The position numbers and the translations under genes are program-made. Below, piece by piece: positions 1 through 16,448 of a stretch of DNA of 18,135 nt. How positions within the stretch are numbered: position 1 is the first letter of the stretch; each line of letters opens with the position of its first letter. Origin of the DNA: a virus. Below the pieces are notes generated by a model. It did not search any database and had not been told where the DNA came from. It saw only the letters and a list, made by a program, of their open reading frames with translations. The DNA lies in the UHGV virus genome UHGV-0175528; one strand, 5' to 3'.

Positions 1-36
1 AAAAACAATATTATCAGCGGCTCGGAAGTGTCTAGA

Positions 37-972
37 TTATCTGTGGCGATTCAGAAAGATAAATTCTCGATTTCCACTTAACGGCTTCATCATCTCTAGT
101 ATCGCAATTGCTTCATCTGACAATGGAACAGTATGGTCGCGGTTCATTTTCATGCGTGCTGCAGGAATCTTCCACTCTCGCGCTTCTATGTCTACCTCTT
201 CCCAGAGAGCTTCAGCCGCTTCGGCAGGGCGGGTAATAGTAAGAAGTTGCCACATGAACAGGCAGCGTGTGGAAAGGCTAATGCTGGCTGTTCGCATCGT
301 CTGCATTAACTGAGGTAGCTGATCCGGTCGAATGCTGGGCATGTTCTTTTTCTGAGGCTTCTCGAAGGCTTTACCGATATTAACGCTGGGAACAGCATCA
401 ATCAGCCCTGTGTTCTGGGCATAGATCATGACCTCATTAATACGTTGGCACAGGCGACGAACAGTTTCCAGTGCTCCTCTGGCCTGAACCGGTTGTACGG
501 CCTGAACCAGTGTATGAGCTTTAATATCTGTAACGCTAACGTCGCCAATCGCAGGAAAGACGTCTCTTTCAAGAGAGCGCCAGATATCTTCCGCATAGTC
601 CTCTGTCACACTGGCTTTCTTCACATTCCACCAACGTTCAGCTACGAGTTGGAAAGTGTTGGTTTTGGCTTCCAGCGAACTGCGCAATTGTTCTTGCTGA
701 TGTTCCTGCGGATCGATCTGTTTAGCCAGTAGTGAGCGGGACTCTGCACGGTAGTTTCTGGCATCGGCAAGGGTAACTGACGGGTAGGAGCCTATGCTCT
801 TCTTTGCTCGTTTCTTGGTGACAGGGCGAATGTAGCGAAACTGCCAGATTTTACTCCCGCTGGATTTAATGAGTAGCTCAAGGCCATCGCCATCATAGAG
901 AACGTAGTCCGCCTCCTTGGGTTTGGCTGATTCTATTTCTTTAACGGATAGAGGTTTGGTTTGTCTTGCCAT
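37..972 (-). CDS. intA: P4-type (CP4-57 IntA-like) tyrosine integrase, N-terminal 311 aa only; ends after ...REFIFLNRHR, so the C-terminal catalytic region (HxxR and Tyr) is missing; probable pseudogene or remnant
   Basis: N-terminus MARQTKPLSVKEIESAKPKEADYVLYDGDGLELLIKSSGSKIWQFRY is typical of P4-family integrases. The conserved WxEVDxxxxEWxIPAxRMKxxRxHxVPLS block is present, but the ORF stops about 100 aa short at 37-39 (TAA). ATG at 970-972. Confidence 0.7.
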   Translation of the reverse strand: MARQTKPLSVKEIESAKPKEADYVLYDGDGLELLIKSSGSKIWQFRYIRPVTKKRAKKSIGSYPSVTLADARNYRAESRSLLAKQIDPQEHQQEQLRSSLEAKTNTFQLVAERWWNVKKASVTEDYAEDIWRSLERDVFPAIGDVSVTDIKAHTLVQAVQPVQARGALETVRRLCQRINEVMIYAQNTGLIDAVPSVNIGKAFEKPQKKNMPSIRPDQLPQLMQTMRTASISLSTRCLFMWQLLTITRPAEAAEALWEEVDIEAREWKIPAARMKMNRDHTVPLSDEAIAILEMMKPLSGNREFIFLNRHR

Positions 973-990
973 TGCCGGGTTTCCATAGTT

Positions 991-1044
991 TTAGGCACCT
1001 CAAAAAACAATAAAGCTTTATGAGGTGCCTAACAAGGTGCCTAA
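991..1044. repeat. Inverted plus direct repeats of AGGTGCCTAA upstream of the truncated integrase start; possible regulator or arm-type binding sites
   Basis: TTAGGCACCTCA (991-1002) is the exact reverse complement of TGAGGTGCCTAA (1021-1032); AGGTGCCTAA recurs directly at 1035-1044. Confidence 0.5.
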
Positions 1045-1098
1045 AAGGATCGGATTTAATTAGTTTTCTTCGGACTTCGCGGGACAAATTGAGGGCAC

Positions 1099-1130
1099 AA
1101 AAAAGCCCGCAGGGCTTGCGCCGTGCGGGC
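1099..1130 (-). terminator. Intrinsic terminator on the minus strand just downstream of the tmRNA 3'-end copy
   Basis: Minus strand reads GCCCGCA-12 nt loop-TGCGGGC followed by TTTTTT (plus-strand A-run 1099-1104, stem arms 1105-1111 and 1124-1130). Confidence 0.55.
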
Positions 1131-1177
1131 TCTTAGGACTTCATCGGATGACTCTGGTAATCACCGATGGAGAATTT

Positions 1178-1204
1178 TGGTGGAGCTGGCGGGAGTTGAA
1201 CCCG
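1178..1204 (-). other. Attachment-site core: 27-nt copy of a tmRNA (ssrA) 3' end (T-arm plus acceptor stem plus CCA), not a full gene
   Basis: Minus strand reads CGGGTTCAACTCCCGCCAGCTCCACCA, which matches my recollection of the E. coli ssrA 3' terminus; the flanking sequence on the 5' side is unrelated AT-rich DNA, so only the core is present. Confidence 0.55.
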
Positions 1205-1366
1205 TGATCGGGATTTACATAATGTGTTGAATATGAACGATTTATTTTTTCATGCAAGACATTATGTGCATTTTACGTACATATCGTTGTCCCAGTAACG
1301 TCCTGATTCTGTCCAATATTTTGAAACATGTGTAGAATGTGGATTTTCGATTTTTGTAGAGAATTT

Positions 1367-2281
1367 CGGATGAAGGTTCTTGTTCCACCTCCTGAAATTT
1401 GTATTTATTCTGATAAGTACCGACTAGACACATTGAAATTTCTTAACGACATTGACACGATGGGGGTGACGGATGGTTGTAAGCTTGAGATTGATTTATC
1501 TAACGTTCGTTTTGCTTCAGCTGCGGCATCGCTACTATTTTTCGCAATAGTTAATCGGGCAAATCTGCTTACAGGTGATCCTAACTTGATACGTTTCAAA
1601 TGGCCGAAAAAAAACGACAATCCAAATGGGCATAAGTGGTTAGTTAGCACCGGGCTCTCTAAAGCTCTCCTGGCTGGAACCCCAGAGAAATTAGAAAATC
1701 TTATTAAAGATGGGCGTTTTTTTCAGTCTGCTACCGAACCATTTTCGCATTTATTGGACACAGTTAGTGTATTACAGTCGAAGGCAGCGTTAAATCAGCA
1801 TCAGTTAAATCTGCTCATGACAGCTGTTGGTGAGGCACTTTTGAATGTTTCGCATCATGCATACGAACATGAGATGTTTTCACAAGATTTAATTCTGCTC
1901 CAGGGGAAGCGTTGGTGGCAGTGTGCGTGGTTTGATCCTGCGCAAAATGAGGTTGTTTTTATCGTTTGTGATCTGGGGTTGGGGATTTTTCGATCGTTTA
2001 GTCCCGAGGCTGATGGTGTTAGTATAGAAAAACAAGTATCTTCAGTAGCAAGAGCTATGCTTGTTGGGCAGAGCCGTTTTGTAGGGGACGGGCGAGGGAA
2101 TGGCTCGGAAGACATAAAGAGGCCTATCGGTGTTGGGTGTGAGGATAAAGAAACACTCTTAATTCTGACCGGCAATGTACGATATAGCTATAATTCTTTC
2201 GACGAAGAACCTCGCTGTGAGAAACTTGCAGAGTATATTCCAGGTACATTGCTTCAGTGGTCCCTTACTCCAAGGAGATGA
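1367..2281 (+). CDS. GHKL-family ATPase / putative serine-protein kinase (SpoIIAB/RsbW anti-sigma-factor-like fold) with an N-terminal STAS-like segment
   Basis: N-box GEALLNVSHHAY, G1 box VCDLGLGIF, G2 box GDGRGNG and G3-like PGTLLQW sit in the C-terminal half in the order seen in SpoIIAB. N-terminal KLEIDLSNVRFASAAASLLF resembles the downstream STAS-like protein. Start is uncertain (ATG at 1328, 1337 or 1367), with no strong SD. Confidence 0.6.
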   Translation, partial: RMKVLVPPPEICIYSDKYRLDTLKFLNDIDTMGVTDGCKLEIDLSNVRFASAAASLLFFAIVNRANLLTGDPNLIRFKWPKKNDNPNGHKWLVSTGLSKALLAGTPEKLENLIKDGRFFQSATEPFSHLLDTVSVLQSKAALNQHQLNLLMTAVGEALLNVSHHAYEHEMFSQDLILLQGKRWWQCAWFDPAQNEVVFIVCDLGLGIFRSFSPEADGVSIEKQVSSVARAMLVGQSRFVGDGRGNGSEDIKRPIGVGCEDKETLLILTGNVRYSYNSFDEEPRCEKLAEYIPGTLLQWSLTPRR

Positions 2282-2285
2282 AAAC

Positions 2286-2609
2286 ATGGTTATAGTCATA
2301 GCTAAGCAATTTTCTAAAACGCCGTTTGGTCGATACACGTCGGACGGTCCTGACAGTGCTGAAAGATTCAGAAGAGATTTTTTGGTTCCAGCCTTTAAAT
2401 CGAGTGGCGAAAAAATTGTTGTGGATTTCAGGGGGATTGCTTTAGGTGTGGGGTCTTCTTTCTTGGAGGAAGCCTTCGGTGGGTTAGTGCGTAAAGAGGG
2501 GATTGCCAAATCTGAAGTTAAAACACGCTTAGAAATCGAAAGTGATATGCCATTTTATCAAGAACAGATATCTAAGTTTGTTGATCAAGCAAAACCTGAG
2601 TTGGCATAA
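2286..2609 (+). CDS. Small STAS-like protein (DUF4325-like; anti-sigma-antagonist-like), 107 aa
   Basis: AAGGAG SD 8 nt upstream of ATG 2286, 4 nt after the upstream stop. Motif KIVVDFRGIALGVGSSFLEEAFGGL resembles the STAS DxSG phospho-acceptor region. Confidence 0.6.
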   Translation: MVIVIAKQFSKTPFGRYTSDGPDSAERFRRDFLVPAFKSSGEKIVVDFRGIALGVGSSFLEEAFGGLVRKEGIAKSEVKTRLEIESDMPFYQEQISKFVDQAKPELA

Positions 2610-2622
2610 GGATTTTTGAAGA

Positions 2623-3192
2623 ATGGCGCAATATGCATGGATGTTTAGTGTCACAAGCATTGCTTTAGTGTTTGTCGGATGGTGGGTAACGTATTGTAAC
2701 GCTATGCGAATAGCTACACGTTCAGAGTCAAAGTCTATAGTTGATTCATTGACGAAACTTGTGAGTGAGCTTGCTGATATTTCGATAGATTATTGGCTTA
2801 AAAAAGTATCTCACATAACACCTCCTCCTGAATCATTACAGGGTTCAGTTGTTCCTGTTGAGGCTGCTGAGTATCTCACTGTGCTTTTGGCGAAGGCAAG
2901 CCAGGCAGGGCATTATTTTAAGTTACTGAATATTCGAGGTATTGAAGCTGATGCAAGTAAGCTATCTGCAGTGTTAGAAAAAACAAGCCTTGACTGTGAG
3001 ATCGCTTATTGTCAATCAGCTTCAGAACGCTGTGTGAGGGCTAATGAAATTATGTCTGTTTGCATGGAGGTGATAGAAGATATTCACTCTAATTTTCAAG
3101 CAGCATACCCTCCATCAAAACATATTTCACCTATTGCATGGTATAAAAGTAAAGTCAAAGAAATTGAAGAATGGCACGCTAGTATGTATTAG
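2623..3192 (+). CDS. Hypothetical membrane-anchored protein (one N-terminal TM helix, about 150-aa soluble domain), 189 aa
   Basis: ORF follows the STAS-like gene by 13 nt. N-terminal AWMFSVTSIALVFVGWWVTYC is hydrophobic. AT-rich like its two neighbours; no recognisable catalytic motif. Confidence 0.5.
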   Translation: MAQYAWMFSVTSIALVFVGWWVTYCNAMRIATRSESKSIVDSLTKLVSELADISIDYWLKKVSHITPPPESLQGSVVPVEAAEYLTVLLAKASQAGHYFKLLNIRGIEADASKLSAVLEKTSLDCEIAYCQSASERCVRANEIMSVCMEVIEDIHSNFQAAYPPSKHISPIAWYKSKVKEIEEWHASMY

Positions 3193-4360
3193 AGTTGTAT
3201 GTCTTTACTGATTTCCCATCGTATTCAGCCAAATACGAACCGTAATGTCGAAAAAGCATTTCCGGTCCTTTATGCCCCATCTGACCAGCAAGCCAGAACA
3301 GGTTAACGCCCTGGCTAATGTGCCGAGTGGCGAACGTGTGGCGTGTCTGGTACGGATTGCGATAGCGTACACCAGCTTTTTTAAGGGTTGGCACCCAGGC
3401 TTTTTTTCGGATCGCGTCCGCATTTGCCCAAGGGGCGCGAGTTTTTGGATCGCTGAATATAAAGTCGCTTTTTAGCGCCGTGTAGGGCTTTTGTGCCTGA
3501 AGAGCCGCCAGCGCTTCGCTGTTCAGTTGCACTTTGCGGGTGCCGGCTTTTGTTTTGGTGCTTTTGATTACCCCGACTACGCTTGCAATCTGAACATGCG
3601 CGGTGTTGCCGATAAAGTCTATATCCGTCCAGCGCAACGCGCACAATTCTGAGCTGCGCAGTCCGGTATTAAAGGCAAAGCGAAACAGATTTCGCCATTC
3701 CGGGTAATGACAGGCGCCATAGATTGCTGCCGTCTCCGCTGGTGTAAAAGGATCGACCTCGTAATCATCACTGCCTGGTGTGTTGTCCAATACGTGATAC
3801 CGGCTGGCGCTGACTAGCGTGACAGGATTTATTGTTAACAAACCATCGGTCACCGCCTCATCTATGGCGCTGCGCAGGAATGAAAGATTATTGCGGATAG
3901 TTTTCAGTTTTGTTTTTCTGCTGGCGATCCAGTTTTTTAGTACTGCAGGTGTCAGTTCTGATACATGAAATTTATGCAATGCTGACAGCGCCGACAGGCA
4001 TTTTTCATAACCTCTAATTGTCGATGGTGACAGGTTACGGTTCTGGCAGATATTCAGGTATTCATCCAGGTAAGATTTTATATTTTTGTTTTTTTTCACT
4101 CCCCCGAATAGCTCCAGCTTTTGGGAGTTGGGGAAGTATTTTGCATACTCGAAGGTACCACTGATAATCTGATTTTTTATTTCTCCCAGCAGGCGCTCGG
4201 CATACTTCACACTGCGCGCGTTTACTTCCATTCTGGAGAGGGGCTCCCGACACAGAACCCCTTTATATGTAAAAGTGATAACCAGGGTGCTACCAGTTTT
4301 ATGCTGGCGAATAGTTACTCCTCTAGGGAGAGATAATGATCCTTGTTCTTTCTTGCCCAT
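3179..4360 (-). CDS. int: Tyrosine recombinase / phage integrase (lambdoid prophage Int), full length
   Basis: C-terminal catalytic region has RHTFATRH (HxxR region) and LFRHYGSY (Tyr). GGAGG SD 7 nt upstream of ATG 4358-4360; the track start at 4387 is a TTG. Confidence 0.9.
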   Translation of the reverse strand: MGKKEQGSLSLPRGVTIRQHKTGSTLVITFTYKGVLCREPLSRMEVNARSVKYAERLLGEIKNQIISGTFEYAKYFPNSQKLELFGGVKKNKNIKSYLDEYLNICQNRNLSPSTIRGYEKCLSALSALHKFHVSELTPAVLKNWIASRKTKLKTIRNNLSFLRSAIDEAVTDGLLTINPVTLVSASRYHVLDNTPGSDDYEVDPFTPAETAAIYGACHYPEWRNLFRFAFNTGLRSSELCALRWTDIDFIGNTAHVQIASVVGVIKSTKTKAGTRKVQLNSEALAALQAQKPYTALKSDFIFSDPKTRAPWANADAIRKKAWVPTLKKAGVRYRNPYQTRHTFATRHISQGVNLFWLAGQMGHKGPEMLFRHYGSYLAEYDGKSVKTYNSNTY

Positions 4361-4524
4361 TTTGTAACCTCCATTAAGTCGACCCAACGTTCTTTAACTC
4401 CGTCGACTTTTAATACATGTACCCCTTCTTTCCATATTCCTCTTTGTATCCGTTTGTTAACGGCATCAACCGTTTCTCCTGCGTTGCGGCAGTAGGTTGA
4501 TATAGGTACGCAATCCAGCCCCAC
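4315..4524 (-). CDS. xis: Putative excisionase (Xis-like small DNA-binding protein), overlapping the int 5' end
   Basis: 69-aa basic protein directly upstream of int, overlapping it by 46 nt as in lambda xis/int. Loose resemblance to excisionases (ISTYCRNAGETVDAVNKRIQRG). GTG start with a close SD. Confidence 0.5.
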   Translation of the reverse strand: MGLDCVPISTYCRNAGETVDAVNKRIQRGIWKEGVHVLKVDGVKERWVDLMEVTKWARKNKDHYLSLEE

Positions 4525-4532
4525 AGTTCACC

Positions 4533-4679
4533 TCATACAACACTCAGCCCACGGCAGTGGCACCACACTTCAAACATTCGCCTCACAACTTCACGACAGT
4601 AGAAGCCGTCAACGTCTCGCGTCAGGTCATAGCGATTGCCGTAACGCTGGCGTACCCATAGCTCAAATGCTTTATTCAT
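4533..4679 (-). CDS. Hypothetical small protein (48 aa), below the ORF-track length cutoff
   Basis: ATG 4677-4679 preceded by AGGAAA; MNKAFELWVRQRYGNRYDLTRDVDGFYCREVVRRMFEVWCHCRGLSVV. Fits the gap between the upstream gene and xis. Confidence 0.3.
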   Translation of the reverse strand: MNKAFELWVRQRYGNRYDLTRDVDGFYCREVVRRMFEVWCHCRGLSVV

Positions 4680-4682
4680 TCT

Positions 4683-4925
4683 CTATTTCCTTTTCATGGC
4701 TCGTAATTTTTTCAGATGAGCTTCCTGCTCTGTTTCTGCCAGAATTTGTCGGTATTCCTGGTGATCTATCCGTTCAAACGATTCATTAAAATCGCTTATT
4801 TTTACAGATTGTGTTCGCCCATCCATTCTTCTGTACAACACAGTGTTGTTTATGCAGCGAATAATTTTTATCGGGTAACCGGCACTGTCGGTATACAGTT
4901 GCCCTTGATTAATCAAAGCGAACAT
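4683..4925 (-). CDS. Hypothetical prophage protein (80 aa)
   Basis: Internal ATG at 4923-4925 has an AGGAG SD 5 nt upstream; the longer track ORF (to 5048) would overlap the upstream gene by 90 nt. Confidence 0.5.
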   Translation of the reverse strand: MFALINQGQLYTDSAGYPIKIIRCINNTVLYRRMDGRTQSVKISDFNESFERIDHQEYRQILAETEQEAHLKKLRAMKRK

Positions 4926-4956
4926 TTTTTCTCCTGCTCTCTGAATAGTGAGAACT

Positions 4957-5328
4957 TCAGAGCCGTATGTTTGTAGCGGGTTCAATACTGATAATTTCTG
5001 CTGAGATAAGCATCCCGGCAAGCCAGAGTTCTCTGGACAGGTCTTCATCCTGGCATATCAGTTCGCCAATATTAATGGTGGCCATGATATCTGTTTCCCC
5101 TGTGCGCTCATCCTCGACTTCTTCATAAGGCAGCGTTGCGTACAGGCTTTCAATAGCGCAACTGATAACATCCAGTCCGGTCAGATTGCCGCCGACAGTA
5201 ACTTCGAATGTTTCGCGGTATTCCCATAGTCCGAAAGTTAATCGAACGGTTTGTTTTGCCATGCGTCCGCATGACGTCAGATTCGGGTCATAGTTCATTA
5301 TTTGCGGTTGAGTATTCTGGGTGTTCAT
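4957..5328 (-). CDS. Hypothetical prophage protein (about 123 aa)
   Basis: ORF in the leftward operon; start chosen at the MNTQ ATG (5326-5328), which has a GGAA-type SD; acidic C-terminal half. Confidence 0.5.
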   Translation of the reverse strand: MNTQNTQPQIMNYDPNLTSCGRMAKQTVRLTFGLWEYRETFEVTVGGNLTGLDVISCAIESLYATLPYEEVEDERTGETDIMATINIGELICQDEDLSRELWLAGMLISAEIISIEPATNIRL

Positions 5329-5368
5329 CTGCATTTCCCTTAGCCCGGCGGCCTGCCGGGCATATAAG

Positions 5369-6196
5369 TTATTTAACCTGGATAAATGGTGTATTTGCAC
5401 CGCTGGTCATGTATTGCGGCAGTGTGCCGTTCCATTTATTGATGGCTTCCAACTCCATAACACCGGGGTTCTGGCGCAGAGCTTCACCGCGTAAACGAAT
5501 AGCATCGGCTTCGGCCTGGGCTTTTGTGCGAATCGCATCAGCCTGTCCGGCAGCTTCCGCGCGCAACATGTTGGCTTCCGCTTCGCACTGTTTAACTTCC
5601 TGCTCGCGCTGCAGTGTTTTCTGGTTCGCCGTGACTTTGGCATTAATGCTGTCGATAACGGTTGACGGGTACTCCGGCTTACCCACATATGAGAGGCTCA
5701 TTACCTGAATACCGATGGGTGTCATTTCCTCCTGGATGTCTTTAAGAGCTGCATCCAGTAGTTCAGACTTCCCGCCGTCGATAAATTTGTCGGTGGTCAT
5801 TTTGCTGGCCAGTCTATTGAGTGCGTCGGCGATCTTTTGACGTAGGTCGGTGTCGGTAATGTCATCCACGCCTTTGCGGTAGGTCTGAAACACCGTGGTA
5901 ACTTTGGATGGGTCAACTTTGTAGGCCACGCCGATGTGATAGCCGATGGTTGTACCGTCACTCATCTGGAAACTGAACGGTTCATCGTAGGTCTTCATTT
6001 GTTTGAAGGTCGGGAAGATGTAAACTTCAGTATTCCAGCCGGTCCAGTAGCGGCCAACGCCAACCACTTCACCGACGCCTTTGTCGTCGCCCAGTTTATT
6101 TACCTTGATGCCAACATTACCTGGTTCAACGCGATCGCAACCGACAAGGCCAATGGTCGGAAGAACAATGGCTAAAGCAAAAATAACTTTTTTCAT
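5369..6196 (-). CDS. SPFH/band-7 (prohibitin/HflKC-like) domain lipoprotein
   Basis: N-terminus MKKVIFALAIVLPTIGLVGC has a lipobox (LVGC). Central SPFH-like region and an Ala/Glu-rich coiled-coil C-terminus (AEAAGQADAIRTKAQAEADAIRLRGEALRQNP). Confidence 0.85.
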   Translation of the reverse strand: MKKVIFALAIVLPTIGLVGCDRVEPGNVGIKVNKLGDDKGVGEVVGVGRYWTGWNTEVYIFPTFKQMKTYDEPFSFQMSDGTTIGYHIGVAYKVDPSKVTTVFQTYRKGVDDITDTDLRQKIADALNRLASKMTTDKFIDGGKSELLDAALKDIQEEMTPIGIQVMSLSYVGKPEYPSTVIDSINAKVTANQKTLQREQEVKQCEAEANMLRAEAAGQADAIRTKAQAEADAIRLRGEALRQNPGVMELEAINKWNGTLPQYMTSGANTPFIQVK

Positions 6197-6381
6197 CTTT
6201 TACCCTTAGTGAAAGAAAGACCCTTGTAAATGGCATAAATGCAGGGCGGGGTCAGAAACGCCAGTGCAAAGCCGGAAATGACTGCTACCGTATCCTTCAT
6301 GGATATAAGGAACGGGACGAGTAGTCCGTAAATGCATGCGATAATTGCCAGTAAAATTACTATTCTGAAATACAATCTCAT
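6193..6381 (-). CDS. Small membrane protein (62 aa, two predicted TM helices) translationally coupled to the SPFH gene
   Basis: Its stop overlaps the SPFH start (ATGA-type overlap at 6193-6196). MRLYFRIVILLAIIACIYGLLVPFLISMKDTVAVISGFALAFLTPPCIYAIY is hydrophobic. Confidence 0.55.
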   Translation of the reverse strand: MRLYFRIVILLAIIACIYGLLVPFLISMKDTVAVISGFALAFLTPPCIYAIYKGLSFTKGKR

Positions 6382-6404
6382 TGGTTTGTTGCATCCCGAT
6401 ATTT

Positions 6405-6512
6405 TTAACTGACTGACAGCGCAATAAAGAGAATAATGATTTCTGTTAGTGTCAGTACTGTGGCAAGGATTAAAAGCAGTTTTACTCTGCTTAATTCACG
6501 ATTGCTTTTCAT
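6405..6512 (-). CDS. Candidate tiny hydrophobic peptide (35 aa), not in the ORF track
   Basis: ATG 6510-6512; MKSNRELSRVKLLLILATVLTLTEIIILFIALSVS has one TM-like helix; sits immediately upstream of the small membrane/SPFH pair. Confidence 0.3.
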   Translation of the reverse strand: MKSNRELSRVKLLLILATVLTLTEIIILFIALSVS

Positions 6513-6557
6513 ATAAACGGTTAGTAAAAAACGGAAGAATTATATTCTTCTTAATAT

Positions 6558-7139
6558 TTAATGTGTCACTGGCGCTTCTGGCATACCATGAGTATTCAGA
6601 TCGTGAATCATTTCATCCAGAAGGAGTTCAAGCCCTTCGCGCCCCATAGCAGAGACAATGAAACCATTATTAGGATCTGCGATGAGCATTTTTTGATAGA
6701 GAAACAGAACTCGCCCCATGCCTTCAGCTTCACCATATTTTTCAATAAATCCCCATTCGACATGGTTTTGCAGGGCAATGCGAAGTGGTCCTGGGTATAT
6801 ACTCATGCAACCATGCTTCCCCTTATAAATAACTGCGCGATCTGTAGTTCCGTTATCGTTAGGGATATCAATGGTGCCGTTCTTGTCTTCCACTTCACTG
6901 ATAAATTTCGCTACATATAGCCAGCGCCACTGGGCAACCTTCATATCGACTGAAAATTTGCCCAGCAGTCCGGCATCATCAGCTTCTGCAATACATTGCA
7001 TGATTCTTAACCCATGCCAGTATGGATTATCGTATTCACCATCATTAAGCCGCTGTACGGCCTCAACATAATCAATGGTTGTATTGCCAATTTTTATGCC
7101 ATGTGGCGTAACTTCTGGTCGGAACTCTGAATGATTCAT
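6558..7139 (-). CDS. Hypothetical protein (193 aa), no recognised domain
   Basis: Start taken at the MNHSEFRP ATG (7137-7139), which overlaps the upstream gene's stop (ATGA-type coupling). Confidence 0.55.
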   Translation of the reverse strand: MNHSEFRPEVTPHGIKIGNTTIDYVEAVQRLNDGEYDNPYWHGLRIMQCIAEADDAGLLGKFSVDMKVAQWRWLYVAKFISEVEDKNGTIDIPNDNGTTDRAVIYKGKHGCMSIYPGPLRIALQNHVEWGFIEKYGEAEGMGRVLFLYQKMLIADPNNGFIVSAMGREGLELLLDEMIHDLNTHGMPEAPVTH

Positions 7140-7324
7140 AATGTTTGCTCCTTTGCTGGTGGAATAATCGTGTAGCCAGCTCTTTTTGCCATCCACAGAA
7201 ATGTATCCATGCAGCCAACGAATTCATTATCCAACAGATGTTTTGAGTAAATTACTTCACCATTTTCAATGGTTAGCAACACTCTTACTTTTTTATGTGT
7301 TATGTTCTGTTGTTTTTCTTTCAT
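7136..7324 (-). CDS. Hypothetical small protein (62 aa), coupled to the downstream 193-aa gene
   Basis: GGGAGA SD 7 nt upstream of ATG 7322-7324; stop overlaps the next start. Confidence 0.5.
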   Translation of the reverse strand: MKEKQQNITHKKVRVLLTIENGEVIYSKHLLDNEFVGCMDTFLWMAKRAGYTIIPPAKEQTL

Positions 7325-7522
7325 TTATTTATCTCCCATATGCTTTGCGCAAATACAGGTTGGCTATATGAAGATAAGAATCTCCATGTTGTGCAATGAG
7401 GCAGGCAGTTTTATACGATGCCTTATTTTTCAGGAAAGTCATAACTGAGTTCCCTCTATGAATAAAGGTTGTAACAATCCCCGGCGATAAAACCGTAATA
7501 AACGTTCAGAGCATGTTTGTTG

Positions 7523-7888
7523 TTATTGCGCTAGTTCTTTTTCGGCAGCAGCTTTTGCATATTCACATGCAAAATTCAGAATTTCGCTACCGAGTGTTTT
7601 TATTTCGTTATTACTGGACATATGTAATACCTGTGTTGCATGCAATAAATGATAAACATTTACCGCAAATGAGTCCGGCTCCAGACAAATGCCTTCATAA
7701 TCATCTTGCTGTGAGGTTGTTTCTGTCATTGCTCCTGAAGTGCATGCGAGCCTGTTTTTGACAATTCTCTTTCCTCTAATCACTATATCGGCTACATCTA
7801 TTGCCTTTACAACCTCCGGGAGAAATTCCTGGTTTGTATAATCAAAGTTATCAACATGGAGAACAGTTATGTTTTCGAACTTTTTCAT
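7523..7888 (-). CDS. Hypothetical prophage protein (121 aa)
   Basis: Complete ORF in the leftward operon; no recognised motif. Confidence 0.5.
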   Translation of the reverse strand: MKKFENITVLHVDNFDYTNQEFLPEVVKAIDVADIVIRGKRIVKNRLACTSGAMTETTSQQDDYEGICLEPDSFAVNVYHLLHATQVLHMSSNNEIKTLGSEILNFACEYAKAAAEKELAQ

Positions 7889-8069
7889 GGCTTCCTCAGC
7901 TGACTTATATGTTCTGCTATATAGCGAGTCTCAGAAGTGTTTTCATATTGAGACTGTTTCCTCAATGATTGATAATTAGTTACCGGATGCTTATCCGTGT
8001 CCGGCGCACGACCACACGTAGCCGCGTGTTGGTCTCCATTTACAATTCAGCTCTCAATGGAGGATAAAA

Positions 8070-8296
8070 TGATTAACGAAGAGCAACTTGAAAAAGAAAT
8101 TTCAGCGCTCAAAAAAGAATTAATGTGGCACAAAGTCGCTATCTCTGCATTAATTCGTCAGGTGGTTTCACCTGAAGATAAAGTAAATTTTATGAAGCAC
8201 TTCTCATGTTCATCAAATGAATTTTTTACTGACGGTCCTCATCCAGAGGCTGGTTTTTGGATCCGTCAACTATTTTCGCAAGATAAGCGTAAATAG
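8070..8296 (+). CDS. Hypothetical small protein (75 aa) on the opposite strand to its neighbours
   Basis: GGAGG SD 6 nt upstream of ATG 8070 (MINEEQLEKEISALKKEL...); a strong hairpin lies 14 nt past its stop. Confidence 0.5.
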
Positions 8297-8468
8297 TGTC
8301 GTCAATGTTCGCATCGCTCTTGAATTTAAGAGCGATGCTCTTAATATCCTCTGAAATTATTGCCAGATTACCGTATGTTATATTTTTATTATTGCGCTCA
8401 GCGCTTTTTTGTATGCAATCAAGCAATTCACCAATGAGACATATGTGGTAAGCATCACAGTTTTTCAT
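8226..8468 (-). CDS. Hypothetical small protein (80 aa), possibly coupled to the upstream HTH gene; overlaps the 3' end of the + strand gene
   Basis: ATG 8466-8468 overlaps the TGA of the HTH gene (ATGA). However, the 11-bp hairpin at 8311-8338 lies inside this ORF, so it may be spurious. Confidence 0.35.
   Translation of the reverse strand: MKNCDAYHICLIGELLDCIQKSAERNNKNITYGNLAIISEDIKSIALKFKSDANIDDTIYAYLAKIVDGSKNQPLDEDRQ
8311..8338 (+). terminator. Strong hairpin (11-bp perfect stem, 6-nt loop) downstream of the 8070-8296 gene; probable terminator or RNA structure
   Basis: GCATCGCTCTT-GAATTT-AAGAGCGATGC, followed by TCTTAATAT. Confidence 0.45.
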
Positions 8469-8926
8469 GCGCAAGTATCCCCACCTGTTGGTTTACCGGT
8501 TAACAGCCACATCGGATCGCAGCCAAGAACATTTGCCAGTGGGATAAGCATACTGATAGTTGGTTCATACTCTCCGCTTTCCCACTGGATGATGATTTCT
8601 TCATCGAGATCGAGCAGCCTGGCGAGTTCGGCGGTTGTTAAGCCGCAGGCTTCGCGTTGGGTGCGAAGGTTAACCAGCCAGCTTTCAGGGAAGGATTGTT
8701 TTTGTTGTGCAGGAGAAGCCGCAGATAGAGCATATTCATGGATAAATTCCATTACTTCAATGCCCAGTTCCTTTGAGCGAGCACAATCCAGAAGATGGAA
8801 TGTGCGTACAGCACTTAGCAAATTTGCAATATTTAATGCAAAGGAATCAAGTTCTAAGCCCTTAAGCGTAACACAGCCGCAGTTGATAAAATTGGTTGTT
8901 TCTGGGGTTGCTTTTAGTGTTTTCAT
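8465..8926 (-). CDS. XRE-family helix-turn-helix protein (C-terminal HTH, about 90-aa N-terminal domain of unknown function), first gene of the leftward pL-like transcript
   Basis: C-terminal LTTAELARLLDLDEEIIIQWESGEYEPTISMLIPLANVLGCDPMWLLTG is a typical HTH_XRE. Sits directly downstream of a consensus-like sigma-70 promoter. Confidence 0.7.
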   Translation of the reverse strand: MKTLKATPETTNFINCGCVTLKGLELDSFALNIANLLSAVRTFHLLDCARSKELGIEVMEFIHEYALSAASPAQQKQSFPESWLVNLRTQREACGLTTAELARLLDLDEEIIIQWESGEYEPTISMLIPLANVLGCDPMWLLTGKPTGGDTCA

Positions 8927-8978
8927 ATATCCGCCAACAATTTTAAATTGAACATAATCAAGTTATAATTGATGGTGC

Positions 8979-9007
8979 GATATTATGCTTTGAGAAATAG
9001 GCTGTCA
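8979..9007 (-). promoter_or_regulatory. pL-like sigma-70 promoter driving the leftward operon
   Basis: Minus strand reads TTGACA (plus 9002-9007), 17-nt spacer, TAATAT (plus 8979-8984); nearby ATCAAG/TTGAT motifs resemble those in the cI-cro intergenic region. Confidence 0.5.
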
Positions 9008-9035
9008 AGAAAAAATTGATATCGTGCGTTTTAGG

Positions 9036-9061
9036 CAGAAAAAAAACGGGCAAAGCCCGTT
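9036..9061 (-). terminator. Intrinsic terminator downstream of the repressor gene
   Basis: Minus strand reads ACGGGC-TTT-GCCCGT followed by a run of about 8 T (plus-strand A-run 9038-9045). Confidence 0.7.
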
Positions 9062-9072
9062 AAAATCAAAGA

Positions 9073-9762
9073 CTAACCAAATCTGTTTATATTGAATGGT
9101 ACTGATGAGATCACTTTAGACTGGATATAAAGCAGAGCTAACCCCTCTTTTTCGATGCTCCATGGTTGATAATTGGGGTTATCAGATAACACCATGATTT
9201 TGCTTCCAATTTTCTGAAGTCTTTTCACGTAGCATTCTCCATCAAAACAAAATGCATAAATGCCATCGCCATCAAAATAAGTTACTGTCTTATCAAGAAA
9301 AAGAAGGTCGCCAGGTGAGATTGTGGGAGCCATACTGTCTCCTCTGGCGTTACCTATTTCTATATTTTTGAATGCCCGATTTCCAACAAGGCGTCGGGCA
9401 TATTCAGGATCAAGTTCTATTGAGCGCACTACATCTATCAAGTCACCACGTACATGAGTTCCATCACCGCAACTAAACTCAACATCAAGGACATTAAACA
9501 CGACGCTATCTGTTCTTGTCTGGTGTTTCTCTTGCGAGGAAAAGGTTGGTGAGGAGTCTTCACCTAAGAACCAGGATTGTGGATAACCGCTAATCTCTGA
9601 TAAATGCGCGAGCTTATCACTCCGTGGAAATGTTTTTCCTGTTGTCCAGTACTGCACTGATTGCGCACTCACACCTAACTTGCGGGCCAGTTGAGCCTGA
9701 GTCCATCCTTTGGCTTTCAGCATTGCGGCTATTCGATTTTCCGTGTTTTTGACGTTCTTCAT
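9073..9762 (-). CDS. cI: CI-like phage repressor (N-terminal HTH, C-terminal S24 LexA-type autopeptidase)
   Basis: HTH region WTQAQLARKLGVSAQSVQYW; S24 nucleophile motif GDSMAPTISPGDLLFLDK and Lys in CYVKRL. ATG at 9760-9762 has an AGGA SD; the track start at 9768 is a TTG. Confidence 0.9.
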   Translation of the reverse strand: MKNVKNTENRIAAMLKAKGWTQAQLARKLGVSAQSVQYWTTGKTFPRSDKLAHLSEISGYPQSWFLGEDSSPTFSSQEKHQTRTDSVVFNVLDVEFSCGDGTHVRGDLIDVVRSIELDPEYARRLVGNRAFKNIEIGNARGDSMAPTISPGDLLFLDKTVTYFDGDGIYAFCFDGECYVKRLQKIGSKIMVLSDNPNYQPWSIEKEGLALLYIQSKVISSVPFNINRFG

Positions 9763-9895
9763 GACCAAATCCTGTGGGTTTCTTTACAAGGATAAATCTT
9801 TATTTGATTTTAGTGTATTCGATCCTTTTGCAACTTGCATGTTAATTTAAACTTGATGTATTCTTGATTCATAAAGTTAATATTGGTGCTTTGTT
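9763..9895. promoter_or_regulatory. Divergent cI/cro control region (OR-like operators with pRM/pR-type promoters)
   Basis: 133-bp AT-rich spacer between divergent repressor and Cro-like genes. Repeated CTTGAT / ATCAAG-type half-sites (AACTTGATG, TTCTTGATTCAT, GCAACTTGCATG) are shared with the pL region. Confidence 0.6.
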
Positions 9896-10168
9896 ATGAA
9901 AGAAAGTGATTACGACAAACTTCGTGCATTAATTGCGCAAAATGCTGTAGCGCGAAATCTTGGTGTGACGCCGCAAGCGGTGAATCAGTGGTTTTCAAAA
10001 AACACAATTCCTGCTCGTTTCGTTTTACGCGTATGTGAAGTAGTTGCATGGAAAGTCACGCCACATGGCTTAAGGCCAGATCTTTATCCTCATCCTGAAG
10101 ATGGAATTCCTGATTCGTTACGCAAAATTTCAAATCCAAGCTTAGCGCACACAGAGGATGAGAAGTGA
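9896..10168 (+). CDS. cro: Cro-like / YdaS-family small HTH regulator
   Basis: Divergent from cI; LGVTPQAVNQWFSKNTIPARFVLRVCEV is typical of the Cro/YdaS family; 90 aa. Confidence 0.75.
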   Translation: MKESDYDKLRALIAQNAVARNLGVTPQAVNQWFSKNTIPARFVLRVCEVVAWKVTPHGLRPDLYPHPEDGIPDSLRKISNPSLAHTEDEK

Positions 10169-10208
10169 TGGTGGTGATATGAGCGAAAAAATAACTATTA
10201 AATACGAT

Positions 10209-10231
10209 GGGGCAACCATTTCGATTGCCCC
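10209..10231 (-). terminator. Hairpin between convergent cro and the minus-strand 97-aa gene; possible terminator
   Basis: GGGGCAA-9 nt-TTGCCCC perfect 7-bp stem, 7 nt past the minus-gene stop; followed on the minus strand by a T-rich stretch (ATCGTATTTAATAGTTATTTTTT). Confidence 0.4.
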
Positions 10232-10238
10232 AATCACA

Positions 10239-10532
10239 TTAGCGTTCGCTGAGAAGTTGTTGGTAAGCCTTAAAGGATGCGAACTGCATTCTACCTTCGG
10301 CATTGATTCCAATGTCTTCGCTTGTACACCAGGCGATGAACTCGGCTGTATCCGCTTCAACTTTAATAACTCGTTGCCCGCTTCTTTCGACACGCTTAAT
10401 CAATTTTTCAGCGTCGTGTTTCCACTCGGTGTAACTGTCGGAGAGCACATCAGCATCAGTAAAAATATTTTTGAGCTCATGATACTGAATCGCATCGCGA
10501 AACCAGAATAAACCAACGGCCTGAACTTTCAT
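10239..10532 (-). CDS. Hypothetical protein (97 aa) transcribed antisense to the early-right operon
   Basis: Very good SD (AAAGGAGG, 6 nt) before ATG 10530-10532. The overlapping + strand ORF 10158-10511 has a poorer initiation context. Confidence 0.5.
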   Translation of the reverse strand: MKVQAVGLFWFRDAIQYHELKNIFTDADVLSDSYTEWKHDAEKLIKRVERSGQRVIKVEADTAEFIAWCTSEDIGINAEGRMQFASFKAYQQLLSER

Positions 10533-10651
10533 GTCGAACCTCCTTTGGTTCTTTTGTTTATAGGGATCAAAAGGATAACTGAAGGAAGGTTCGGCACCAA
10601 TAAGTACGAATGTGCGGAATCTTAAAAGAATTTATCCGTAAGGAGATGGCG

Positions 10652-11359
10652 ATGAGCACTGCAATTTTTAACGGCAAAGCATCCATGACCAGCCTTGAAA
10701 TCGCAGAGCTGGTGGGTAAGCGTCATGACAATGTGAAACGAACTATTGAAACATTGGCCAAAGGTGGCGTTGTTCGGTCTCCTCAAATTGAGGTTTCCGA
10801 AAGAATCAATAACTTAGGTTTTAAAGTTCAATATGAGCATTACCTGTTTGAAGGAGAACAAGGTAAGCGCGACAGTATCATTGTCGTCGCTCAGCTTTGC
10901 CCCGAATTCACAGCCCGCCTGGTAGATCGCTGGCGCGAACTGGAAGAACAGATCCGTAAGCCAATGAGCGAAATCGAAATGGTTGCCGCAATGGCCCTTG
11001 AAGCCGTTCGCCAACAGAAACGGATCACTCAGGTGGAAGAAAAAGTCAGCCACGTTGCTGAAACAGTCGAGCAAATCAAAAAGGGCACTATTCGTGAGGG
11101 CTATGCCGGATATCGCCAACTGAAAGCGAAAACCGGTTTGTCAGATGATAAATGCCGCAATCTGGTGAACGCTTATCAAATTCCTACAGATACCCACGAG
11201 TTTATGACGCCGGACGGATTGTTATCACGTCGCGCAATTGTTGCTGTAGAACCGTTTATGGCTGCTTTTTATCGGGTTACGGAGGAAGCAGAACCGCGAG
11301 GGACTCGCTGGTATCACCCGAAAATAGGGTTATTTCAGGTTATTGGTTGGCAGCGGTGA
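10652..11359 (+). CDS. Rha-family phage regulatory protein (antirepressor-like), N-terminal Rha domain plus C-terminal domain
   Basis: MSTAIFNGKASMTSLEIAELVGKRHDNVKRTIETL matches the Rha (Phage_pRha) N-terminal signature; AGGAG SD 6 nt upstream of ATG 10652. Confidence 0.75.
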   Translation: MSTAIFNGKASMTSLEIAELVGKRHDNVKRTIETLAKGGVVRSPQIEVSERINNLGFKVQYEHYLFEGEQGKRDSIIVVAQLCPEFTARLVDRWRELEEQIRKPMSEIEMVAAMALEAVRQQKRITQVEEKVSHVAETVEQIKKGTIREGYAGYRQLKAKTGLSDDKCRNLVNAYQIPTDTHEFMTPDGLLSRRAIVAVEPFMAAFYRVTEEAEPRGTRWYHPKIGLFQVIGWQR

Positions 11360-11385
11360 AAAAAAAGCCGGGTAGTCACCCGGCT
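11359..11385 (-). terminator. Strong intrinsic terminator oriented for minus-strand transcription
   Basis: Minus strand reads GCCGGGT-GACT-ACCCGGC followed by 9 T (plus-strand A-run 11359-11367, stem arms 11368-11374 and 11379-11385). Confidence 0.65.
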
Positions 11386-11450
11386 CGCTCAACGTTAGTA
11401 AAGACAACTTCACAGAGAAGTAAGCCAGTAACATCCAAGAACATTTGCCT
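11362..11450 (-). ncRNA. Candidate small antisense RNA (about 90 nt, oop-like) with its own promoter and terminator
   Basis: Minus-strand promoter TTGAAA (plus 11480-11485), 18-nt spacer, extended -10 TGgTATTTT (plus 11456-11464); transcript would end at the 11359-11385 terminator. No ORF of meaningful length. Confidence 0.3.
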
Positions 11451-11775
11451 TAGTAAAAATACCAGTAAGCATATGAATGTTTCAAGCCTAAATATTGATT
11501 CTGCAATTTCGGGACGTTACACTGTTCTGGCACCTTATAAAGCGGGTGCCGGGATTGGAACCCCGGAATTGTCAGCGGCGACAAACGACGCGCCAGCGTC
11601 TTTTTTGTTGTCAGCGCCTGCGCACACCCAAATTATGGTGGGCTGGGCAGGGGAGCCGAAAGGCTCGCCGGTTCCCGTTGACGCCGGTAGTTCCAACCCT
11701 GTTCAGTCCGCCACCAGCGAGCTTGGAACCTCCGGTGGTGGATATTATCACCCACTGTCAACGGAGGCTGCCATC

Positions 11776-12138
11776 ATGGCTACTGTCCCAACTTCTCCAT
11801 ACCTGAAAATCGAAGTCGTCAACGGCAAAGCTGTTATTTTCTCCTTGCATGTTGCCTGTCATTTCAAGCGCATGCACCAGAACATCGTCGACAAAATCGA
11901 GTATCTGAACTGCTCACGCGAGTTTTTTACCCGCAATTTCATACCGGGTACTTATCACATCTATGGTGATTCTCTGCATGGTTATTACATCACCCTTGAT
12001 GGGCTGATGATGCTTCAGCTTGGGCTAAGTCTGCGCACAATGCGGTACTACGAGAGCTGCATTGAAGCATTCCATGAGGCAGAAAACAGCCTCAGTCATA
12101 CCGCTTTCCGCCGTAATCAATGGGAGGCGCGTCCATGA
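11776..12138 (+). CDS. Short Rha-domain protein (120 aa)
   Basis: GGAGG SD 7 nt upstream of ATG 11776; MATVPTSPYLKIEVVNGKAVIFSLHVACHFKRMHQNIVDKIEYL...FFTRNF...YITLDGLMMLQLG follows the Rha-domain pattern. The track ORF extends upstream to 11152, but that part overlaps the previous gene and a GC-rich segment. Confidence 0.65.
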   Translation: MATVPTSPYLKIEVVNGKAVIFSLHVACHFKRMHQNIVDKIEYLNCSREFFTRNFIPGTYHIYGDSLHGYYITLDGLMMLQLGLSLRTMRYYESCIEAFHEAENSLSHTAFRRNQWEARP

Positions 12139-12329
12139 TTAGTTACGAAATTATTATTTCCACAACGGAATACAGAAACGATGTATCAGTTCGCACAGAT
12201 ACATCTGTCTGGCACCGCCGCTATAAATCCAGAAAAACGGCGGAACGCAAAGCGGCAGAGATGTGTGAAACCATCTCAATGAAAGGTAGCCCGGTTAAAT
12301 ACGTAACTACGGCGGAGGTGCGTCCATGA
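12135..12329 (+). CDS. Hypothetical small protein (64 aa)
   Basis: GGGAGG SD 7 nt upstream of ATG 12135; ATGA overlap with the upstream stop. Confidence 0.5.
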   Translation: MISYEIIISTTEYRNDVSVRTDTSVWHRRYKSRKTAERKAAEMCETISMKGSPVKYVTTAEVRP

Positions 12330-12550
12330 TTCGTCGCGTTGTGAATTCTCTGTATCACCGATACAACCGTTGCCCCCGTGTGGGGCAGTGGTTCACCACC
12401 AGCAATGGTCACGTTTTGCGGGTTTGTCTGGTCAGTATCGAAAGCCAGAAAGTTGTGTGTGAATTACTGGGGCGTAACTACACCATCAGTTACCCTCTGG
12501 CGGTGTTTCAGTCCGGAAAAATGTTTAAACGCCTGGGAGGTGCCGTGTGA
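12326..12550 (+). CDS. Hypothetical small protein (74 aa)
   Basis: GGAGG SD 7 nt upstream of ATG 12326; ATGA overlap with the upstream stop; initiation context nearly identical to the previous gene's. Confidence 0.55.
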   Translation: MIRRVVNSLYHRYNRCPRVGQWFTTSNGHVLRVCLVSIESQKVVCELLGRNYTISYPLAVFQSGKMFKRLGGAV

Positions 12551-13503
12551 GTAGCAAAATTCTCGGTAACGTCTGGGATGCATGTGCCGCGTATGGAGTC
12601 AAAGGTGCAAAGCTGATGATCATGGCGCGTCTGGCTGATTATTCGAATGATGACGGGGTGTGTTATCCCGGTGTTGAAACAATATGCCGACAGCTTGGGT
12701 TGGGAGAAAGCACAGTAAGAACGGCAATTTCAGAGCTGGAGGCTGATGGCTGGCTGACGCGTCAGTCACGTCGCAAAGGTAATCGTAATACGTCCAATCT
12801 TTATCATCTGAATGCTGATCGGCTTGAGCAGCTTGCCAGAACGGAGCGGGATAAGGTCGCTGAACTGAAACAGCAACGCAGACTTTCAGTATTACGTGAC
12901 CCGTCAGAATCTGAACCTTCAAAATCTGACCCGTCAGAATCTGAACCTTCAAAATTTGACCCGTCAGAATCTGAATGTTCAGGTGTGTTTGACCCTTCAG
13001 ATTCTGGCAAAAAAACGGTTTTGACCCTTCAGAATCTGGACCCAGATCCACAAGGTTTAAAACATGATCCGCAAGTAAATTCAAAACATGATCCGCAAGA
13101 TATTGGCGCATCCGCTGACGCGTCTGCACCAGCGCGCTCTGCCCGACAGGAATATTCACCGGAATTTGAACAGGCCTGGCAGGAATATCCCAAACGTGCT
13201 GGTGGTAATTCCAAGTCGGCAGCCTTCAAAGCCTGGAAAGCCCGTCTCAGGGAGGGAATAAAACCGGAGACCATGCTTGATGGTGTGAGACGTTATGCCG
13301 CCTGGGTACGTGCTACAGGAAATACCGGCACACAGTTCGTGAAGCAGGCTGCGACGTTCTTTGGACCCGATCGTCACTTCGAAGACTTCTGGCAACAGCC
13401 AGCCGCTCCCGGAGGTGGGCGACAGCGACAGGTCGATGTCCTGGCTGGCCTGGGAGCCATGTCTGACAAATTCGGTAAATCCAGTGACAAATTGACATTC
13501 TGA
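12547..13503 (+). CDS. Phage replication initiator (O-like; N-terminal winged-helix/HTH DNA-binding domain, repeat-rich linker, C-terminal domain)
   Basis: GTG start coupled to the upstream stop, with a GGGAGG SD. N-terminal GVCYPGVETICRQLGLGESTVRTAISELEADGWLTR is typical of HTH replication initiators. Iteron repeats lie inside the gene, and it sits upstream of DnaC-like and DnaB-like genes. Confidence 0.8.
   Translation: MSSKILGNVWDACAAYGVKGAKLMIMARLADYSNDDGVCYPGVETICRQLGLGESTVRTAISELEADGWLTRQSRRKGNRNTSNLYHLNADRLEQLARTERDKVAELKQQRRLSVLRDPSESEPSKSDPSESEPSKFDPSESECSGVFDPSDSGKKTVLTLQNLDPDPQGLKHDPQVNSKHDPQDIGASADASAPARSARQEYSPEFEQAWQEYPKRAGGNSKSAAFKAWKARLREGIKPETMLDGVRRYAAWVRATGNTGTQFVKQAATFFGPDRHFEDFWQQPAAPGGGRQRQVDVLAGLGAMSDKFGKSSDKLTF
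12897..13039. repeat. Iteron array (five copies of TGACCC[G/T]TCAGA[A/T]TCTG, about 30-33 bp period) inside the initiator gene; probable origin of replication
   Basis: Copies start at 12897, 12927, 12957, 12990 and 13022; followed by two copies of AAACATGATCCGCAAG (13059-13100). In frame they encode DPSESEPSK-type repeats. Confidence 0.65.
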
Positions 13504-13513
13504 GGTGACAGCG

Positions 13514-15780: not shown

Positions 15781-16034
15781 ACAACCAGACAATACCTTTT
15801 ACCCCTGAACAATTACGTAAACAGGCACAGGAAATGTTGCGTCATGCTGAACAACTGGAAAAGACGGGGGTAACAAAAGATGCCATTCGTCGGGATGTGG
15901 TTCCAGCGCTCAGGGAACTGATGCAGGTGAAACATCGCGCACAAAAAGCGGTGGATGAGCTGGTGGACTGTGTGGCAGAGCTGGAAACCAGAGTTGGGAA
16001 GTTTGAAAAGCTGGTGCAGGAGGTGTTGCGCTGA
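15777..16034 (+). CDS. Hypothetical small protein (85 aa, predicted helical)
   Basis: ORF between the helicase and Q; the track start is TTG overlapping the helicase stop; first ATG is at 15834. Stop overlaps the Q start. Confidence 0.45.
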
Positions 16035-16417: not shown

Positions 16418-16448
16418 CTAACGTTAGCTAACAAAGTTGAATAAAAAG

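Follow-up and report, generated by a model that had tools for sequence, protein, structure and literature searches.

Genes for transfer RNA (tRNA) and transfer-messenger RNA (tmRNA) serve as landing sites for integrative elements. Integration into these genes, the displaced 3' fragments that result, the enrichment of ssrA among the targets and the occurrence of tandem arrays are all established (PMC4383910, citing Williams 2003). In the Islander data, 125 arrays of two or more elements were recorded and ssrA was the most enriched target (PMC4383910), while several ssrA-adjacent elements of Escherichia coli and Salmonella, with P4-type, P2-type and other integrases, have been tabulated elsewhere (PMC10107115). 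The closest described systems include CP4-57 of E. coli K-12, with the gene order ssrA-intA-alpA (Kirby et al. 1994, as cited in PMC10107115). The core of CP4-57 is given as CGCCAGC(T)CCACCA, the same as in the K-12 annotation (PMC10107115 Table 1), and its excision through a degenerate attR leads to loss of T357 and inactivation of the tmRNA (PMC10107115). The DNA examined here is the UHGV virus genome UHGV-0175528, a stretch of 18,135 nucleotides (nt), termed the window, which contains about 17 kb of the early region of a lambdoid prophage. Positions 1-1210 are, with high confidence, the attR junction between two integrative elements, independent of each other, that occupy the 3' end of E. 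coli ssrA in tandem. Tandem ssrA arrays are an already known class, and the locus is an ordinary example of this well-known kind of arrangement.

The centre of the junction is a displaced 3' end of ssrA, 27 nt long, at 1178-1204 on the minus strand, which is the attR core of the lambdoid prophage, as seen from its unique exact match and from comparison with E. coli C5 and the locus L018. This 27-mer, TGGTGGAGCTGGCGGGAGTTGAACCCG, occurs once in the window, was matched in 0 of 200 shuffles, and is the exact reverse complement of the final 27 nt of ssrA in both E. coli K-12 and C5. Where complete genomes have a match ending at 1204, the annotated feature underneath is ssrA. ARAGORN found neither a tRNA nor a tmRNA in the window, and the only tmRNA match by Rfam was a partial one at 1178-1219, with 13 bits against a gathering score of 47. 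These results bear out the original prediction, made from the sequence alone, that a tmRNA 3' end is present without the tmRNA body; the fragment, the missing body and a short integrase were all found where it had placed them.

The extent of the att core was obtained from C5, in which the order is a 413-amino-acid island integrase, the terminator, the 27-mer, a 48-kb lambda-like prophage, full ssrA and smpB. The C5 prophage carries int, an early region, Q, lysis, terminase, head and tail genes, J, lom and tail fibres. Its two ends share an identity block of exactly CGGGTTCAACTCCCGCCAGCTCCACCA (27 nt), with differing bases on both sides. The 27-mer is thus the att core of the lambdoid phage, because the block of identity between attL, which lies in ssrA, and attR in C5 is exactly 27 nt. 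Beside the same phage int module, the 27-mer recurs in L008, L009, L010, L012 and L013. In the K-12 annotation, the boundary of CP4-57 falls 15 nt before the end of ssrA, and a 14-nt pseudo-ssrA (psaA) is found at the other end of the element. A CP4-57-type core of about 14 nt is thus nested inside the 27-nt core of the prophage, and the two integrases use overlapping cores; the proposal of a shared att core is upheld in this form. The fuzzy search for degenerate att copies gave mostly noise, and only exact or near-exact copies, rechecked by exact matching, were used. A degenerate psaA-like copy was seen in strain STEC309.

The sequence on the island side of the fragment is that which normally follows ssrA. 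The 3' trailer (1135-1177, minus strand), which joins the CCA end to the terminator, is identical to the sequence downstream of ssrA in K-12, C5, O104:H4 and L018. Next to it, a terminator scan and an inverted repeat locate the native intrinsic terminator of ssrA (1099-1134, minus strand), a GC-rich hairpin with a T-run, identical to that downstream of K-12 ssrA and now parted from its gene by the prophage. The resemblance to CP4-57 of K-12 is close: the position of the island is that immediately downstream of ssrA, the ssrA trailer and terminator are identical over about 110 nt, a three-repeat architecture lies upstream of intA, and an AlpA homologue is carried by relatives of the window's island. 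The differences are that the island here adjoins a displaced 27-nt fragment rather than ssrA itself, that its intA is interrupted behind codon 306 by an insertion sequence (IS) of the IS3 family, that its arm-repeat motif and arm-binding domain are distinct, and that its relatives carry PD-Lambda-4 instead of the K-12 cargo abpAB and rnlAB. An IsrM gene at 1099-1187 (minus strand) was considered and rejected, with an Rfam score of 32 bits against a gathering score of 376; only the hairpin region of the ssrA terminator and a few 5' bases align. This partial match suggests that Salmonella isrM derived from the same ssrA-downstream sequence in a tandem-island context.

The independence of the two elements can be read from loci in which one of them is found apart from the other. 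In L018 (GCA_009799155.1, 9433-11046), the full tmRNA gene is followed by the terminator and by the same junction of the truncated integrase gene (intA') with the IS. Identity with the window is 100% over 1-1204 and ends exactly at 1204. Judged by its sequence, L018 is the natural unoccupied state of the same locus. Since this unoccupied locus has the same junction, the IS insertion is independent of the prophage, and most simply older. In the other direction, the phage int module with the 27-mer has several other neighbours. In E94 it adjoins another island integrase, accompanied by ParB genes and a type I restriction-modification system; in A41 and L012 its neighbour is the ogr/D end of a P2-like prophage, and in L013 the csiD/gab side of the chromosome. 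In WAT, the int module adjoins a second lambdoid prophage in a triple array at ssrA (L007 74-100, 48711-48737), which consists of a CP4-57-type island, that second prophage and the phage type of the window. With at least four different left neighbours of the phage, and with the allele beside an empty ssrA, the two elements are independent. The second prophage of WAT carries a type II restriction-modification system, and its att region resembles ssrA over a longer but imperfect stretch.

The combined junction of terminator, core and phage arm is present in 13 of 5426 complete E. coli genomes, and terminator plus core in 725. Recurrence of the combined junction in those 13 genomes and in L010 could suggest that island remnant and prophage form a single mobile unit which uses the outermost att sites. 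This is very unlikely, as the parts occur separately (the unoccupied L018; the phage alone by csiD/gab in L013), the C5 prophage has perfect 27-bp repeats of its own at both ends, and the island integrase which a reaction between the outer sites would need is broken. Independent mobility of two stacked elements is instead seen in the occupied and unoccupied states provided by L018 and by the lone phage in L013. Islander recognises tandem arrays by elements that each bring an integrase gene and a fragment of the target RNA gene (tDNA), co-oriented with the intact tDNA. Of these, the window holds two integrase genes (37-972, truncated, and 3179-4360, intact) and one fragment (1178-1204), the intact ssrA and the distal fragment of the island being outside it; in the homologous locus of C5, the full set is present for the prophage. 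The array would, as in the Islander set, combine a tDNA with displaced 3' fragments that point the same way and an integrase for every element; C5 is a double and WAT a triple array of this kind. No difference in kind was found, and the locus here adds only the inner integrase inactivated by an IS.

The integrase gene of the island, intA', occupies 37-972 on the minus strand and encodes 311 amino acids, not 413; it was delimited from the list of open reading frames, from Pfam and NCBIfam coverage and by alignment, and belongs to the CP4-57/P4 family. Its ATG (972) lies 205 nt from the CCA end (1178) on the same strand, and the spacing of ssrA and intA in K-12 is 203 nt; the predicted ssrA-intA layout, with a P4-type integrase about 200 bp from the tmRNA 3' end, was accordingly found. 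Pfam recognises Arm-DNA-bind_3 (PF13356) at residues 8-95 (E 4.6e-21) and Phage_int_M (PF22022) at residues 107-198 (E 2.2e-24), while the catalytic Phage_integrase domain (PF00589) is represented only by profile positions 3-101 of 172, the first 60%. The NCBIfam model PRK09692 (NF007246) is matched at positions 1-309 of 413, with 680 bits against a cut-off of 434. Over residues 1-306, identity to the 413-amino-acid WP_000113815.1 is 100%. The final five codons (LNRHR) and the stop (37-39) come from the IS end, and 36 nt separate this stop from the window edge. Catalytic residues were assigned by reading the family motifs on the alignment to WP_000113815.1 and K-12 IntA. The lost 107 residues include H337-G-L-R340, H363 and Y373, and R248 is kept. 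On this alignment, intA' is classed as a pseudogene of the P4/CP4-57 integrase family, in which the complete R...HxxR...H...Y domain is lacking. The predicted early stop, about 100 amino acids short and before the HxxR and Tyr residues, corresponds to 107 lost codons, leaving 311 of 413 residues.

What cuts the integrase gene short is the right end, at 1-53 (plus strand) and with the inverted repeat ...GTGGCGATTCA, of an IS3-family IS of 1229 bp, as established from matches to IS ends and from full copies in L002 and L021. The stop codon of the transposase, TAG, is at window 33-35, the IS ends at 53, and integrase sequence begins at 54. Window 1-60 matches the ends of annotated 'IS3 family transposase' elements in 1259 of the 5426 genomes, in 1-16 copies each, many of them on plasmids. 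Among 763 E. coli records with matches to window 1-1400, all matches start at position 54 or later. Full copies of the IS in STEC309 (L002:6825-8053) and in L021:1251-2479 are 100% identical to one another. The terminal repeats, TGAATCGCCAC... and ...GTGGCGATTCA, have the 5'-TG...CA-3' form, OrfB matches NCBIfam NF033516 with 357 bits, rve domains are recorded on L021, and PGAP annotates a programmed frameshift, so that the element has both the terminal repeats and the frameshifted OrfAB DDE transposase expected of the IS3 family. Neither PGAP nor NCBIfam gave a name more precise than 'IS3 family'.

A stop only 36 nt from the window edge, together with contigs (L018, L019) that end inside the repeat, might raise the thought that the integrase is really intact and that the stop reflects a sequencing frameshift or a chimeric contig end. 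The chance of this is practically negligible. A continuation of intA in another frame was looked for and discarded, there being no integrase homology in any frame left of 54. Of the two origins suggested beforehand for this sequence, an IS end or the out-of-frame remainder of the gene, it is the former, and one known from many genomes. The truncation is real and not a frameshift, because the last 107 codons are replaced by the IS end. Moreover, the exact 311-amino-acid product was found by exact-protein look-up on 8 independent contigs, draft or metagenomic (NCBI, ENA, Logan), and L019 (ENA ERZ27289068) is 100% identical to window 1-10972 and probably the contig from which the window comes. 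The exact junction of IS and int is present in 0 of the 5426 complete genomes, and a 36-mer junction search of metagenome and genome contig sets was also empty.

Truncation by the IS is further illustrated by L021 (GCA_009793535.1, 1251-4532; three samples), which spans the whole IS, with no remainder of intA on the far side. Here the IS is preceded by TTC and followed by CCT, and no target-site duplication of 3-5 bp is present. The DNA following the IS is normally found near 0.25 Mb in 676 complete genomes, by the gene of a TnsA-N-domain protein. The L021 copy is associated with either a deletion or rearrangement, or an assembly join through the repeat. In STEC309 (L002 6825-8823), the same IS type lies in the same integrase gene at another position (about window 204), and the PD-Lambda-4 genes are lost. 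This independent hit implies that decay of this integrase gene is recurrent.

Between the terminator and the start of intA, a repeat search revealed three copies of TTAGGCACCT (991-1044), two of them direct and 12 nt apart and one inverted. The same three-copy geometry is seen in K-12 (L005 ~1000-1060) with another motif, TAGGCCCA, and a GGGACCC-type motif is found at the equivalent site in E94 (L008 ~12503-12560). The motifs are 8-10 nt long; their geometry is conserved and their sequence is allele-specific, co-varying with the divergent arm-binding domain of IntA. Comparison of IntA with K-12 IntA shows 84.7% identity (63 differences of 413), and the arm-binding domain is the most divergent part, with 29% against about 7.7%. 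The TTAGGCACCT repeats probably serve as arm-type sites for Int and overlap the int promoter. Because IntA' keeps this promoter region with its three arm-type repeats and both the arm-binding and core-binding domains (306 native residues), and because the core of about 14 bp lies within attR, it could be imagined that IntA' binds attR or the ssrA 3' end as a catalytically dead protein and alters the frequency of excision or integration of the neighbouring prophage. We regard this as highly improbable. If true, the binding of IntA' would be an inhibitory interaction between elements, and an interaction between elements had been guessed at in the original prediction.

The body of the island lies outside the window, and its cargo was read from genomes with the identical intact integrase allele (O104:H4 and C5). 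There, two very large proteins are encoded together with a few small ones, with an AlpA homologue (PF05930) and with a truncated GTPase, and the island also contains an IS and a ypjA fragment. PADLOC assigns one large island protein and its neighbour to PD-Lambda-4_A and PD-Lambda-4_B (O104:H4 L006 10682-15325; C5 L001 2682-7325). A second neighbour, of 1248 amino acids, has no Pfam or PADLOC match. PD-Lambda-4 is a system found by selection against lambda-type phages, and in C5 it lies directly beside a lambdoid prophage.

The original prediction had taken the junction as a set-up for piracy or helper interactions, in which a P4-like island, or one like the phage-inducible chromosomal islands (PICIs), exploits the neighbouring prophage for induction or packaging, the shared att site being part of the relationship. 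Several features agree with such a satellite: the integrase belongs to the P4 family, CP4-57 was historically named a cryptic P4-like prophage, the two elements are adjacent with nested cores, and the island type has an AlpA homologue. AlpA-type activators are used by Gram-negative PICIs. A satellite and helper pair is nevertheless very improbable, and this part of the prediction is not upheld. The cargo in the relatives is the defence pair PD-Lambda-4_A/B, and in the island of O104:H4 and C5 neither annotation nor Pfam revealed genes for replication (primase or replicase), capsid redirection or packaging. Island and phage occur independently, in that the island stands beside ssrA without this prophage in most of 668 genomes while the junction is present in only 13, the phage has at least four unrelated neighbours, and the same IS-truncated allele adjoins an empty ssrA. 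The island integrase is also, as read from its alignment, catalytically dead. The known helpers of P4 are P2-like phages, not lambdoid ones. The island type with this allele is a CP4-57-type defence island, and there is no evidence in it for piracy or helper dependence.

The stacking of two independent elements at ssrA would have arisen as follows. A CP4-57-type island with a P4-family IntA would have been present first, immediately downstream of ssrA. The attP of a lambdoid phage would then have recombined with the last 27 bp of ssrA, and its entry would have displaced the old 27-bp 3' end (1178-1204), the trailer and terminator (1099-1177) and the island (37-972) from the gene. An intact ssrA, with an identical 3' end supplied by the phage, would be expected about 48 kb to the right, past the end of the window. 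In a separate and probably earlier event, the 1229-bp IS3-family element would have landed after codon 306 of intA. With the HxxR motif, the His and the Tyr nucleophile lost, the island should be unable to excise by its own enzyme. The phage Int (3179-4360) and the small upstream open reading frame annotated as an excisionase (Xis) should still be able to excise the prophage through attL and attR and so restore the order ssrA-terminator-intA'. As both cores are perfect copies, ssrA would be left undamaged by this excision. The island remnant, by comparison, would be locked in place, because its integrase is dead and its proximal att site is now a fragment instead of a gene.

Several points weigh against this account. 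The full ssrA and the other prophage end both lie outside the window, so the array in the source genome is reconstructed from C5 and from the pair of occupied and unoccupied loci. The source contig terminates within the IS. In the three draft assemblies that continue past it, the sequence normally located near 0.25 Mb and the missing target-site duplication could mean a real rearrangement or an assembly join. The order of IS first and phage later can equally be told as loss of the phage by precise excision in the unoccupied strains. As regards the predicted decayed island beside an intact prophage in tandem at one att core, the stacking, the overlapping of the cores and the breakage of the integrase by an IS stand; the prophage may or may not be intact, as 17 kb of its early region falls in the window and everything past 18135 lies outside.

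The other side of the junction is the lambdoid prophage that had been predicted there, as the CI and Cro, O, DnaC and DnaB, and Q genes in the window show. Its P arm (1205-1369) lies beside the att core; C5 has it up to 1326, other lysogens also share it, and unoccupied loci lack it. The prophage integrase (3179-4360, minus strand; 393 amino acids) has Arm-DNA-bind_2 and a complete Phage_integrase domain by Pfam, falls in PHROG 1, is likewise called with 393 amino acids in L019, and is found in 405 E. coli genomes. A putative excisionase of 69 amino acids (4315-4524, minus strand) overlaps the int start; its homologues are annotated 'excisionase' in several genomes, an assignment by annotation only, and Pfam gave no match for it. 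The remaining early and regulatory region (4530-18135) contains genes for an SPFH protein, CI-like and Cro-like regulators, Rha/Ash with C4 and isrK RNAs, O-like, DnaC-like and DnaB proteins, the Q antiterminator and a porin, as assigned by Pfam, Rfam, identity to phiP27 and the annotation of C5. The CI-like regulator is an S24 repressor by Pfam. The prophage is a member of the lambdoid class, with its early genes in the window and with lambda-like head and tail genes known from the homologous C5 prophage only.

The nearest described phage to this early region is the Stx2e phage phiP27, which shows 94.7% identity to the early, regulatory and replication genes (window 4530-18135), with 56% of the query aligned. 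The alignment starts at window 4530, whereas the int/att module and cassette (1205-4530) are unmatched in the phiP27 record. Placement of an ssrA-targeting int/att module on a phiP27-like early region is a typical mosaic module swap. The isrK (63.6 bits) and C4 antisense (81.4 bits) RNAs at 11530-11718 (plus strand) are both above the Rfam gathering scores, and mark a P1/P7- or Gifsy-type antirepressor immunity module in the lambdoid early region. A long mechanically called open reading frame (11152-12138), with scores for both Ash and Rha, encloses the two RNAs. The Q gene is closely followed downstream by an OmpC/Lc-type porin gene (16610-17707, minus strand; 365 amino acids; Pfam Porin_1, E 1e-154).

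Between att and int lies an accessory cassette of three genes (1370-3192, plus strand), described by Pfam and structure prediction. The first gene (1370-2281, plus strand) encodes a Ser-kinase-like protein of 303 amino acids with STAS and anti-sigma-factor-type GHKL kinase domains and no helix-turn-helix, for which Foldseek gave only weak GHKL matches. The second (2286-2609, plus strand) encodes a DUF4325 STAS-like protein of 107 amino acids with an invariant GSSFLEE motif, and a literature search on DUF4325 returned no functional study. The third (2623-3192, plus strand) encodes a helical protein of 189 amino acids with an N-terminal hydrophobic helix; its predicted model is all-helical (predicted local distance difference test score 90.5), no Pfam or Protein Data Bank (PDB) relative was found, and Foldseek was uninformative. 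For the cassette as a whole, PADLOC v2 and NCBIfam gave no matches and PDB sequence searches nothing significant. Synteny of the three genes holds in 9 of 9 species-representative loci, which range from Enterobacterales to Haemophilus and marine Gammaproteobacteria. Lysogens have the cassette placed between att and int, and the integrases there belong to two different families.

The closest described counterpart of the cassette is vapKSC, an anti-phage system of toxin-antitoxin-like character (Chambers et al., EMBO J 2026, PMC13373217), in which a STAS+GHKL kinase is joined by a STAS antitoxin bearing a conserved Ser/Thr and by a PIN toxin, VapC. Both are three-gene operons, and the first two cassette proteins resemble VapK and VapS in fold and architecture, but the third cassette gene encodes a helical protein and not a PIN/VapC nuclease. 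The cassette is therefore not a vapKSC member as defined, and by analogy its function may be similar. That it is a toxin module of vapKSC type, triggered by DNA damage or phage, is offered tentatively, as a possibility somewhat short of an even chance. A conserved cassette between att and int, by appearance a vapKSC variant with a different third gene, is a more promising lead than the junction itself.

The locus matters little in itself, as one more case of elements coming and going at the tmRNA gene and of an integrase decaying through an IS. Its use lies in the pair of occupied and unoccupied states, the window and L018, which sets the attB core of the phage as exactly the last 27 bp of ssrA, with a perfect copy kept at attR. 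Excision of this prophage should spare the tmRNA, unlike excision of CP4-57 in K-12, where T357 is deleted (PMC10107115). With a prophage in between and intA broken, any CP4-57-type 'excision switch' on ssrA would be uncoupled in this lineage.

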